From Naegleria gruberi (Eukaryota), in the NCBI GenBank assembly GCA_000004985.1, contig GG738860.1: a DNA stretch of 64,000 nucleotides; one strand, given 5' to 3'. Made by a program: the position numbers and the translations under genes. Positions 7,973-32,471 of this stretch are shown here, piece by piece. Under the pieces are notes generated by a model. That model saw only the letters and a list, made by a program, of their open reading frames with translations, was not told the origin of the DNA and did no database searches. Position 1 is the first letter of the stretch. Each line of letters starts with the position of its first letter.

Positions 7973-8022
7973 NNNNNNNNNNNNNNNNNNNNNNNNNNNN
8001 NNNNNNNNNNNNNNNNNNNNNN
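7973..8022. other. assembly gap (50 N)
   Basis: Run of 50 N characters. Plus-strand ORF 7915..8145 spans it and is an artifact. Confidence 0.99.
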
Positions 8023-8433: not shown

Positions 8434-10141
8434 ATGAGACGACTGTCAAAGCTTGTAGGTCAACTGTCAATTAGTGAAGAAGAAGAAAAGCCTCCTCAAA
8501 CTCTTCGACAAGATGTTAATCCATCATCAGCATCATCATCAATTAACAAACATCAACGAACCATTATCTTTCTAGGATGTGGTGGTTCAGGAAAAAGTAA
8601 GTTTCCATTTCGAATAAACTTTCGAAATACAAAAAGGTTCAATCATGAGAGCCATTCATCCCATACCCGAATTCCTATCTCTCAAACTTATCGATTACAT
8701 GTACGAAAACATCCTAAATATTCCAACATTTATTTTGGGCACTGATTTTGGAAAGGAATTGAAAAAACGTAAAAATCAAGAATTTTTCGAAAATGAATTT
8801 AATCATCACAGTTTAATGATTTATATGGCAAAAACTGCAAGTATTTGGGATGAGGAATTTGCAAAGAAAATTTATTCAATGTGGTGGGATCCTGGTTTTC
8901 AGAAATTTGTCTTTGAAAGGAGGAGCAGTTTCGCATACATGGATGCAGTTCATTATTTTATACAGCAACGAAATTTTAAGAGGATAATGAGGAGTGGATT
9001 TCATCCGTGCAGAGAGGATACCTTCTATTGCATGATAAAGACGACTGGATTTGTGGAAATTTCGTACAGGAGTGGATATGTTTGTGTGGATAGTGGAGGT
9101 CAGAGAACTGAACGAAAGAAATGGCCAATCCACCTGCAATATGAAGAGGGAAAAGTCATTTGTTTTGTGGTTTCTCTTTCAGAGTTTGATGAATTGTGTT
9201 ATGAGGATGATGTTACCAATCGATATGAAGAGGGATTATCAAATTGGGACACGTGGTATCATAATGAACTAGTTCAAAAATTGCCAATTTATATCATATT
9301 TAACAAGATGGACGTTTTGGAGAGGAAGGTAAAGAATGGAATTAAATTTTCTGATTATGTCAAGTCCTATGATGGTGATGATAATGATCCAGAGGCAATT
9401 TCAGAATTTATCATTCAAAGATATTTGGAAATTGATACATTCTTTAATAGAGTTGTGAAACATTTTAAAATTTCTGCCAACAACTTTGATCAATGTGTTA
9501 ATACTATCAATGAGATATTCCACATTGATGAGAGGGTGAGTCCAGAAGATGCGAATTCACAGCAACATTCTCTTCCTGTTCAAAATACAAATAACACCAG
9601 AAGGAAAGTTGTGATAAATTCGGATCTTTTAATAGAGGATGTGATTTATAGTATTTTGGAATTCATGACTTTAGAAGAATTGTTGAACATCTTCTTGTTG
9701 GTCTCAAAGAAATGGAGCAAAGCAGGATTCAAAGTTCCCATTGATTTATTCAGACCTAATATGGATAATTTGGTGAATTCTAGATTTGAGAATGTGAGGA
9801 GTTTGAGTTTGCAATCAACATTTATGCAACGACGTCATATTGAACAGTTAGCTCACAATCCAATGTTTAAAAAATTGACCTATCTCAATCTGAGTAATAA
9901 CTACTCTCTATATATGCCTGATTGGAGCTATTTATTTGAACATAATCAATTTAAATATTTGGAGAAAATAGCATTGGATGATTGCTATCTTAATTCATCA
10001 CTCGTTGATTTCCTTCTCAAAATGCCAAGATTAAAAGAAGTCTCCCTACTTGGTAATCATTTATCACCTCTAGATTTGAAACGGATTAATCATATTTTGA
10101 AGGAAGACTTTGAAGATCCACTATTGGATTTGGAAAGGTAA
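8434..10141 (+). CDS. G-protein alpha subunit-like domain fused to a C-terminal F-box-like motif and leucine-rich repeats; two exons
   Basis: Exon 1 runs 8434 to about 8596 and ends at the P-loop (IIFLGCGGSGKS). A GTAAGT..AG intron of about 40 nt follows. Exon 2 runs from about 8637 to 10141. The spliced junction reads GKS|SIMRAIH, matching the G-alpha sequence GKSTIVKQMKIIH. Later G-alpha motifs are present: DSGGQRTERKKW (the DVGGQRSERKKW switch II) and FNKMD (NKxD). After these come an F-box-like segment (LLIEDVIYSILEFMTLEELLNIFLLVSKKW) and LRRs. The switch-I catalytic Arg in RVKTTGI reads MIKTTGF here. Confidence 0.75.
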
Positions 10142-10207
10142 TCACAGAAGCTATGAGTATGAGTAGTAACACTTTATTTAATGAATTTCGAAAATGGAGC
10201 TAGAATA

Positions 10208-10666
10208 TTAACCTCCTCTCAATCTCAAAACTAAATGAACTGTTGAATCCTTTTGAAGATTGTAATCGGAGAGTTGTCTTCCATCTTCTAATTGTTTACC
10301 TGCATAAATCAATCTTTGTTGATCAGATGGAATACCTTCCTTATCAAAGATCTTTTGTTTCATATTTTGAATAGTATCATTTGATTCCATTTCAATTGTA
10401 ATTGTCTTTCCAGTTAGGGTTTTAACAAAGAGTTGCATACCACCTCTCAATCTCAATACCAAGTGAAGAGTAGAGTCTTTTTGAATATTGTAATCATTGA
10501 TCGTTCTGCCATCTTCCAATTGTTTACCAGCATAGATGAGTCTTTGTTGTTCTGGTGGAATACCTTCCTTATCTTGAACTTTTCTTTTAACATTCTCAAT
10601 TGAATCATTTGATTCAACTTCCAATGTGATGGTTTTTCCAGTAAGTGTCTTGACGAATAATTGCAT
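10208..10666 (-). CDS. tandem di-ubiquitin-like protein (two divergent ubiquitin repeats, each ending LRLRGG)
   Basis: 152 aa, made of two 76-aa repeats. Repeat 1 differs from canonical ubiquitin at about 11 of 76 positions and repeat 2 at about 13 of 76. The canonical ubiquitin lysine positions K6, K11, K27, K29, K33, K48 and K63 (checked by eye on repeat 1) and the C-terminal GG are retained. Confidence 0.85.
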
Positions 10667-10795
10667 TGTTGTTAACTGCTTTTTTCTTGAATTGTTTGTG
10701 TTTCATGTGGTTAGTCCTCTTTGGTTTTATTGCAAATCTTGGAAAAATATTTTTAGACAAAAGTTCTGAAGAATATGAGAAAACCTTGATGAACT

Positions 10796-31769: not shown

Positions 31770-32471
31770 TCAATTATCCACCGAGAAGATTATTTGATTG
31801 TCTCCATCGACAGCTCTCTCAATTGAAGTTGTAACTTTTGGAATAATCTTTTGAGTCATATGATTCATGCAAAAATAGGTCATTAGCAATTTCTCATTAA
31901 CAGTCGTGAGAATAACCAAAATGATTGGCTGTTTGGAATCTAAGGCTTGTCGAACAGCATGTTCACTGAAACCTGAATAACTCACAAACACGCCAACTAC
32001 ATTTTGATTGGCTGATTTTTGTAATTGATAATGACTAAGTACTCCTTCAAATTCTCGAATATATTTCACTCCTACAGCATCCTTCTCCCTTTTACATTGT
32101 CCTAGAATTGGTATTGGATGAGGATTGACTTGCTTTAGAAAGGGAAAATTCCAAAAACCTTTAAAATCAATTCCCTGATCATGAGATCGTTTTGTTACAC
32201 TCAAATTAAAATCATACTCTGATAGGTATTCAACAACTTGTGCTTCAAATCTTCTTCCCAATTCTTGTGATGATGATGATGTAATTATTTCTTCCGAATT
32301 AACTTGATCCTCAGAAAGATTAATTGGAAATATTGACGAATATTTTCGTTTATCCAATGATAATCCATCAAAAAATCGTTCCGAAATAAATTGATGACTA
32401 TTCAATGAATGATGACAATTTAATTTTCCTCTCCGAGAAACAAAGAATCTTTGAGAAAGAAGTTTTTTCAT
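31770..32471 (-). CDS. Mrr-like restriction-endonuclease-fold (PD-(D/E)xK, DUF2034/RRG7-like) protein
   Basis: 233 aa with a real ATG. It carries the motifs DQGIDFKG ... ILGQCKREKDAVGVKYIREFEGVL ... VGVFVSYSGFSEHAVRQA. These match the Mrr_cat pattern (D-G-I-D ... Q-C-K-R ... f-v-t-s-x-f-t) found in yeast RRG7-type mitochondrial proteins. Confidence 0.55.
   Translation of the reverse strand: MKKLLSQRFFVSRRGKLNCHHSLNSHQFISERFFDGLSLDKRKYSSIFPINLSEDQVNSEEIITSSSSQELGRRFEAQVVEYLSEYDFNLSVTKRSHDQGIDFKGFWNFPFLKQVNPHPIPILGQCKREKDAVGVKYIREFEGVLSHYQLQKSANQNVVGVFVSYSGFSEHAVRQALDSKQPIILVILTTVNEKLLMTYFCMNHMTQKIIPKVTTSIERAVDGDNQIIFSVDN

Follow-up and report, generated by a model that had tools for sequence, protein, structure and literature searches.

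Ubiquitin is nearly invariant, and natural variants that differ from their own lineage's ubiquitin at 12 to 17% of residues, with all of the activation and chain-forming residues in place, are rare. A gene of Naegleria gruberi encodes two such variants, head to tail, in a single protein of 152 amino acids (aa). What does such a gene make? It lies in a stretch of 64,000 nucleotides (GenBank assembly GCA_000004985.1, contig GG738860.1); the whole of this stretch was analyzed and is called the window here. The gene had been picked out earlier by a reading of the DNA letters alone, without database searches (the sequence-only reading). We found that the window gene is one copy of an already annotated multigene family, not a unique locus, and that its product is probably a polyubiquitin-type precursor that would be cleaved into two conjugatable ubiquitin variants, alongside canonical ubiquitin. 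The gene and its two repeats are the following.

10208..10666, minus strand: complete di-ubiquitin coding sequence (list of open reading frames and translation, Pfam, exact sequence match to XP_002678908.1/D2VAZ0)
10439..10666, minus strand: repeat 1, an R1-type ubiquitin variant of 76 aa (tblastn, identity counts), which ends in LRLRGG and is followed by the Met of repeat 2
10211..10438, minus strand: repeat 2, an R2-type ubiquitin variant of 76 aa (tblastn, identity counts, family alignment)

The open reading frame (ORF) begins with ATG, runs for 152 codons, and stops with TAA at 10208-10210. Translation, tblastn, and Pfam all bore out the two head-to-tail 76-aa repeats that the sequence-only reading had described. 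The repeats abut without a spacer at an RGG-Met junction (residues 71-82). Human ubiquitin matched them by tblastn with E = 1e-42 and 3e-39, and this search gave no further ubiquitin-like match in the 64 kb. Pfam PF00240 matched two stretches of the protein (E = 1.7e-60), and a PDB search with the protein returned a di-ubiquitin match at E = 1.5e-81. The other structural features named in that reading were also present. There is no frameshift or internal stop in 10208-10666. Both repeats keep the ubiquitin lysines (K6, K11, K27, K29, K33, K48, and K63), the L8/I44/V70 patch with H68, R42, and R72, and the LRLRGG tail. Translation ends right after the second GG, with TAA directly 3' of it, and the window copy has no C-terminal blocking residue.

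We then counted identities against human ubiquitin and against the canonical ubiquitin of the genus, which is established below. Repeat 1 is identical to human ubiquitin at 65/76 residues (85.5%), in agreement with the roughly 85% given before, whereas repeat 2 is identical at 61/76 (80.3%) and not at the roughly 83% given for it. Compared with Naegleria canonical ubiquitin, the values are 67/76 (88.2%) for repeat 1 and 63/76 (82.9%) for repeat 2; the closeness of the latter figure to the earlier 83% is coincidental. The two repeats had been said to be unlike each other, and they do differ at 15 of 76 residues, with 80.3% identity in protein and 76% in nucleotides. Their DNA differences fall 16, 4, and 34 at codon positions 1, 2, and 3, respectively. 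Near-invariance (about 96% or more to canonical ubiquitin) together with identical repeats is thus not what we see in the window gene. The 152-aa protein is deposited as 'polyubiquitin [Naegleria gruberi]' (XP_002678908.1/EFC46164.1, UniProt D2VAZ0), and there is a second identical entry (XP_002668516.1/EFC35772.1). A literature search on the accessions, and on di-ubiquitin or ubiquitin variants in Naegleria, found nothing that describes a di-ubiquitin family. The family has apparently been annotated generically as polyubiquitin and left undescribed as a family.

Is the gene simply the ubiquitin of its lineage? N. fowleri has a 'polyubiquitin with 3 ub domains' (PDB 5VIX), with 96% identity to human tri-ubiquitin (PMC7990177). 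We rebuilt its monomer by score matching, for which local phmmer reproduced the bit scores for human di-ubiquitin. When 15,726 candidate monomers were compared, P19S, S20N, and A28S together were the sole combination that gave both 5VIX scores exactly. A search with this sequence obtained the predicted self-score of 317.0 bits, and the tagged rebuilt sequence exactly matched 'Chain A, Polyubiquitin [Naegleria fowleri]'. The canonical ubiquitin of N. fowleri differs from human ubiquitin at these three positions. Exact look-ups of one to five untagged copies of the canonical monomer found no entry in the collection searched. Another candidate for the Naegleria canonical ubiquitin, P0020 (ESNDT...LADYN), was rejected; it lies on a non-Naegleria contig of 60% GC and did not reproduce the 5VIX score. 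The genus therefore has a separate canonical ubiquitin, shown for N. fowleri by 5VIX, and this supports the sequence-only reading, in that the window gene would not simply be its lineage's ubiquitin.

The canonical ubiquitin also bears on where the variants came from. S19 and N20 are common to the di-ubiquitin family and to N. fowleri canonical ubiquitin. Therefore, the family arose from the ubiquitin of this lineage and not by acquisition from elsewhere. We rejected a horizontal or viral origin on the basis of this sharing, a typical GC content at third codon positions (0.24 for the gene, compared with 0.23-0.33 for the window), and native-looking flanks. The window itself is AT-rich (34% GC), gene-dense, and eukaryotic.

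To collect relatives, we searched with a 101-aa query made of the tail of repeat 1 plus repeat 2 and kept targets below about 177 aa; with the full 152-aa query, tri-ubiquitins of 197-266 aa dominated and nothing closer than 85% was returned. N. gruberi has at least six distinct di-ubiquitin proteins on at least five scaffolds: P0220 (the window gene), P0294, P0305, P0313, P0320, and P0324. The five further members are 152-153 aa long, on scaffolds of 693,645, 379,849, 502,116, and 222,118 bp. N. fowleri has two members, P0243 (FDP41_010776, 156 aa) and P0250 (FDP41_002230, 155 aa), and N. lovaniensis has one, P0328 (C9374_001527, 153 aa). Near-identical variants (P0219, P0286, P0292, and P0318) come from a strain deposited in ENA as 'metagenome'. 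The window protein is 93-98% identical to its N. gruberi-type relatives (the five paralogues and the metagenome protein P0286) and 84-86% identical to the N. fowleri and N. lovaniensis members. We found no shared synteny: the N. lovaniensis G-alpha locus (L007) is without a ubiquitin gene, and the N. fowleri di-ubiquitin gene adjoins an XRN gene, with no synteny common with the window.

We aligned 11 sequences from N. gruberi, N. fowleri, and N. lovaniensis (mean column identity, 92%). All members in the three species are 152-156 aa long and consist of exactly two repeats, an R1 type followed by an R2 type. Relative to human ubiquitin, L3, S19, N20, and D64 are common to every repeat in the family. 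All repeats have Y45 apart from the first repeats of P0313, P0320, and P0324, where F45 is kept. All second repeats have Y45, L61, and V67 or I67, and those of N. gruberi also have I15, M17 (T in P0305), M26, Q28, F31, and S38. Repeat 2 of the window gene carries this R2 signature in full (I15, M17, M26, Q28, F31, S38, Y45, L61, D64, and V67), and its E24Q, T55Q, and I56L are unique among the paralogues. Repeat 1 of the window gene has the same sequence as the first repeats of P0294 and P0286. A 21-residue peptide had been proposed as a variant-specific target for mass spectrometry. It does occur in repeat 1, but it is not specific to the gene: it is also present in P0294, P0305, and P0286 and in the second repeats of P0243 and P0328.

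Among the functional residues, K6, K27, K29, K48, K63, L8, R42, I44, G47, H68, R72, R74, and G75-G76 are invariant in both repeats of 11/11 sequences. The Met after the first GG is likewise invariant in 11/11, and the internal LRLRGG-Met junction is perfect throughout. At K11, K33, and V70, some first repeats differ. Three N. gruberi paralogues (P0313, P0320, and P0324) and both N. fowleri genes have R in place of K11 in repeat 1; judged by these residues, the R1 type has not conserved K11 linkage. In N. lovaniensis P0328, repeat 1 has K33T, Q41L, E64H, and V70D and may be degenerating. Helix positions vary between species, with R, Q, or S at position 28 and Q, F, T, A, or C at position 31. 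In several members, the last GG is followed by an extension of one to four residues (Y, C, A, TLCI, or VDL). These extensions are found in P0294, P0305, and P0286 and in the N. fowleri and N. lovaniensis genes, of which P0243 ends in GG-TLCI; the window copy and three paralogues have no residue beyond GG.

Three metagenome proteins, P0049, P0263, and P0289, contain a repeat with an L3/Y45/L61/D64/I67 combination like that of the Naegleria second repeat. The P0049 locus lies at 1447-2148 of L006, which has a GC content of 40%. The R2-like variant type may be older than, or extend beyond, the genus Naegleria. As a separate observation, the same three proteins share a 13-residue motif with the Naegleria second repeat.

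Next we consider how the genes have been selected. Rates of nonsynonymous (dN) and synonymous (dS) substitution were estimated by the Nei-Gojobori method. Repeat 1 against repeat 2 of the window gene gave a dN/dS of 0.089 at a saturated dS of 1.57; the window gene against paralogue P0324 gave 0.04-0.05 at a dS of 0.7-0.8; and the window gene against N. fowleri repeat 1 gave 0.043. The sequence-only reading had suggested relaxed or diversifying selection. The values of 0.04-0.09 in every computable comparison do not fit this and indicate strong constraint. In other family genes, repeat 1 against repeat 2 gave 0.04-0.11, and the comparison of two P0324-type loci, L008 and L009, gave a dN/dS of 0, with 20 synonymous and no nonsynonymous differences. 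Between the paralogues, about 45-50% of synonymous sites differ (pS).

The 'metagenome' assembly ENA ERZ929261 (run ERR1078381; L001-L004 and L008) contains contigs that are 97-98% identical to the window over several kb. It is effectively a second N. gruberi-like strain, useful for a population-type comparison. Its counterpart of the window locus (L003) is about 97.4% identical overall. The ORF there has three synonymous single-nucleotide differences, one nonsynonymous difference (A46T, in repeat 1), and no indel. The intergenic flanks (66 bp plus 129 bp, 195 bp in total) have been hit by three indel events, on both sides of the gene. The earlier statement that the gene is not a dead pseudogene is upheld by this intact ORF and by the dN/dS of 0.04-0.09. 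The genes are under strong purifying selection, like that of ubiquitin genes, around two shifted sequence optima, and this pattern rules out a recent pseudogene. The L009 locus (194-652) has a source of its own: it is on a 799-bp contig (VFQN01114259.1) of an unrelated, highly fragmented assembly (GCA_006365155.1), and its protein is the same as N. gruberi P0324. A Naegleria contaminant, or a further Naegleria species present in the sample, is its probable source.

What, then, would the protein do? We propose that deubiquitinases cut the 152-aa product after Gly76 of repeat 1, which would release one R1-type and one R2-type variant of 76 aa. Polyubiquitin is normally processed at an RGG-Met junction of this kind. 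Both variants would bring to the ordinary ubiquitin pathway R72, LRLRGG, the L8/I44/H68/V70 patch, R42/R54, and K48/K63. R72 is the determinant by which ubiquitin and NEDD8 are told apart at the E1 step, in favor of the ubiquitin E1, and proteasomal targeting needs the I44 patch and K48. Because the residues of the pathway are retained, we propose that the ubiquitin E1 would activate each variant, followed by conjugation to substrates and into chains beside canonical ubiquitin.

The substitutions are consistent with such a role. Relative to Naegleria ubiquitin, there are conservative exchanges in the core (I3L, L15I, V17M, V26M, I30V, I61L, and L67V) and changes on the surface, in the helix, at 38-39, and in 55-64 (T22S, E24Q, S28R/Q, Q31F, P38S, D39E, T55Q, L56I, S57N, and E64D). 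The I44 face, R42, R54, R72, the tail, K48, and K63 are unchanged and are invariant across the family. Since the I44 face and the tail are untouched, core ubiquitin functions are expected to persist; recognition of the variants by some readers and erasers may be altered. AlphaFold, run with the family alignment, predicted two beta-grasp domains, each with a beta-beta-alpha-beta-beta-beta order. The alignment is shallow (11 sequences), and the scores are to be read with this in mind: mean pLDDT was 74, pTM was 0.49, and linker residues 72-76 had a pLDDT below 50. Such a result is what independent domains on a flexible tail, as in linear di-ubiquitin, would produce.

We also looked for signals around the gene. 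The candidate blocks are these.

10748..10757, minus strand: TATA-like block TCTAAAAATA, 82-91 nt 5' of the ATG, invariant in comparison with L008 and L009
10788-10794, minus strand: block GTTCATC (GTTCAT invariant), common to the paralogue loci
10799-10817, minus strand: block TTTGTGGCTAGAAACAAAA, common to the paralogue loci
10681..10692, minus strand: block ATTCAAGAAAAA, 15-26 nt 5' of the ATG, a candidate transcription start or leader element
10173..10178, minus strand: AATAAA, a candidate polyadenylation signal about 30 nt 3' of the stop

The upstream comparison covered 10681-10817 (minus strand) of the window, 500-672 of L008, and 20-193 of L009. The alignment contains a further block, TTTGTG.C.AGAAACAAAA, that is invariant in the window gene and the P0324-type loci. 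These upstream blocks are invariant despite a coding dS of about 0.7-0.8 between the same genes, which suggests that they are candidate regulatory blocks and that transcriptional control is shared among the paralogues. The blocks in 10788..10817 overlap the 3' end of the last ORF of the upstream gene. AATAAA is found 30-40 nt past the stop in the window, L008, L009, and the N. fowleri locus L010. TTCnGAA-like strings upstream lack the canonical spacing of a heat-shock element, and we do not claim one.

The window gene and a G-alpha gene converge, their stops 66 bp apart; the preceding ORF on the strand of the window gene lies 129 bp 5' of it. The neighbors and other features of the window are as follows.

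8434-10141, plus strand: G-alpha gene (Pfam E = 1e-61) with a C-terminal tail of about 200 aa
10796-11146, minus strand: last ORF of a large upstream gene for an NHL-repeat/EGF-like transmembrane protein; a 22-bp strain indel at about 10827 alters its C terminus
7973-8022 and 11151-11200: assembly gaps of 50 N each
31770-32471, minus strand: eukaryotic ORF with an Mrr_cat restriction-endonuclease-like/RRG7 domain (Pfam E = 2e-14 and 1e-12)

The G-alpha ORF is 100% identical to an N. gruberi predicted protein on a 536,960-bp scaffold. Its tail gave sub-threshold matches to F-box (E = 0.028) and LRR (E = 0.0024); should these matches be real, G-alpha would here be joined, unusually, to an SCF-adaptor-like tail.

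Several observations weigh against release of two conjugatable variants. We found no transcript, peptide, or conjugate evidence for the family in the literature or in proteomics and transcriptome supplements. Among the entries listed in an N. gruberi proteomics supplement, the sole 'polyubiquitin' is XP_002669208.1, of 191 kDa, and the gene identifiers in an N. fowleri transcriptome supplement do not match family members. The canonical ubiquitin locus has been shown for N. fowleri and not directly for N. gruberi. Across three species, the number of repeats (exactly two) and their order never change; the release of monomers would not require this, and it could point to a function of the intact dimer. 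Because no residue follows the last GG, the uncleaved window precursor could itself be activated. Finally, with K11 lost in several first repeats and V70D in repeat 1 of N. lovaniensis, not every repeat of the family need be a fully competent ubiquitin. The 191-kDa XP_002669208.1 was itself seen by mass spectrometry with 11 peptides (11% coverage) and is not a simple polyubiquitin; the generic annotation 'polyubiquitin' covers heterogeneous proteins.

We weighed these points against the alternatives that they raise. The mature product might be the intact di-domain protein, either left uncleaved or conjugated en bloc through its C-terminal GG, as an ISG15/FAT10-like modifier or a ready-made linear (M1-type) di-ubiquitin. 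This would fit an R1-R2 order and a repeat number fixed in three species, with L61 and V/I67 specific to the repeat type, and it would fit the window copy and the three paralogues whose C terminus, ending at GG, could be activated without cleavage. However, the internal LRLRGG-Met is perfect in all 11 sequences, and the AlphaFold model, built on a shallow alignment, shows no confident packing between the domains. The fixed repeat number can also be explained more simply. Since the repeats are only 76% identical in DNA, unequal crossing-over is disfavored, which would keep the number at two. We consider an intact dimer, the main alternative, unlikely. That N. fowleri holds both the variant genes P0243 and P0250 and the canonical 5VIX polyubiquitin makes it very unlikely that the family is Naegleria's ordinary, drifted ubiquitin and main ubiquitin source, even though N. 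gruberi has six or more of these genes, S19/N20 are shared with the canonical ubiquitin of the genus, and no canonical locus was retrieved directly from N. gruberi. The 15/76 differences between the repeat types mean that there is no single 'drifted ubiquitin'. In addition, antibodies to human ubiquitin and to K48 and K63 linkages stain N. gruberi structures (PMC11772885), though such antibodies could cross-react with the variants.

Could the products remain unconjugated, as free ubiquitin-like proteins that decoy ubiquitin-binding domains or deubiquitinases, that terminate chains, or that serve as a reservoir for times of stress without a specific part in signaling? An invariant tail and invariant acceptor lysines (G75-G76, R72, R74, K48, and K63, all under strong purifying selection) are hard to explain unless they are used, and for us this makes unconjugated products highly improbable. 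Replacement of K11 in several first repeats argues for them, and the variation of helix positions 28 and 31 between species is compatible with altered partner recognition. As for a decaying paralogue whose frame happens still to be open, dN/dS is 0.04-0.09 at saturated synonymous divergence between repeats and paralogues, the ORF is free of indels where both flanks carry them, the promoter blocks and AATAAA are conserved, and all functional residues are intact. Set against this, the E24Q, T55Q, and I56L of repeat 2 that no paralogue has, the A46T of the other strain, and the lack of any expression evidence found are too little to make decay anything but extremely unlikely. A further reading goes beyond the cleaved precursor that we favor. 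The two repeat types might be a second, dedicated modifier pair, fixed 1:1 and drawn from a multicopy family, that is functionally distinct from ubiquitin, either with its own readers and erasers or as an intact ISG15-like or linear-di-ubiquitin-like unit. The constrained repeat types, the genus-wide two-repeat layout, and the R2-like repeats in P0049, P0263, and P0289 would all fit such a pair. We regard it as a tentative possibility, on the unlikely side. Thus, we retain a precursor of two conjugatable variants as the probable product.

What this would mean depends on which of these holds. In any case, a genus-wide, constrained family is an experiment run by nature on where the surface of ubiquitin tolerates change. 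If conjugation does occur, some of the 'ubiquitylation' recorded in Naegleria, the pathogen N. fowleri among them, is in fact variant modification. The diGly remnant would be the same as that of ubiquitin, and chain peptides would be separable (LIYAGK compared with LIFAGK). If the variants are redundant with ubiquitin, the outcome is only a correction of annotation, in that 'polyubiquitin' entries hide a distinct family. If a dedicated modifier pair is true, a protist would have a natural, ancient 'ubiquitin variant code'. Many ubiquitin-like matches of 70-80% appeared in both homologue searches. By these matches, diverged ubiquitin paralogues are common among protists, and a new function of the Naegleria family is not implied.

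How does the family compare with known systems? Like canonical polyubiquitin (yeast UBI4, human UBB/UBC, and N. fowleri 5VIX), it has 76-aa repeats without spacers, each ending in LRLRGG followed by Met, with all lysines and the I44 patch, under purifying selection with high synonymous divergence. Some Naegleria paralogues also end, as canonical polyubiquitin does, in a blocking residue or residues (Y, C, A, TLCI, or VDL). Extra C-terminal residues are usual in polyubiquitin and not universal. Unlike canonical polyubiquitin, the Naegleria repeats are 80-88% and not 96-100% identical to ubiquitin, they are not homogenized and differ from each other at 20% of residues, their number is fixed at two, and the window copy is without a blocking residue.

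Two-domain modifiers and fusions are less similar. In ISG15 and FAT10, as here, there are two ubiquitin-fold domains, with a conjugatable GG (LRLRGG in ISG15) at the end of the second. These proteins are about 30-40% identical to ubiquitin, have no internal GG site, and use dedicated E1 enzymes, whereas the Naegleria protein has an internal LRLRGG-Met junction and R72 in both repeats. By the criterion of sequence, the retained internal GG and the high identity to ubiquitin speak against an assignment to the ISG15/FAT10 type. The plant ubiquitin-RUB1 fusion (about 153 aa) resembles the Naegleria protein as a two-unit precursor of about 152 aa whose second unit is a ubiquitin relative and which is cleaved after GG. 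However, neither Naegleria repeat is canonical ubiquitin. NEDD8 has A72 and about 58% identity to ubiquitin, compared with R72 and 80-88% in the Naegleria repeats, which rules out a NEDD8/RUB1 assignment.

By analogy, the closest kind is that of ubiquitin variants encoded by polyubiquitin-like loci. Arabidopsis reportedly has such polyubiquitin-like genes, UBQ8 and UBQ9, which are said to go back to Callis and coworkers in 1995; our literature search did not confirm this. Like these genes and like human UbKEKS, the Naegleria family has substituted ubiquitin repeats that keep the GG tail and coexist with canonical ubiquitin. UbKEKS is encoded by UBBP4 and is conjugated to specific targets with consequences distinct from those of ubiquitylation (PMC7066184). 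It is four positions away from ubiquitin, and the Naegleria variants are 9-13 positions away from their own canonical ubiquitin. Unlike the UbKEKS locus, which is lone, recent, and pseudogene-like, the Naegleria family, with conjugation predicted from its sequences, is multicopy, heterotypic, genus-wide, and constrained.

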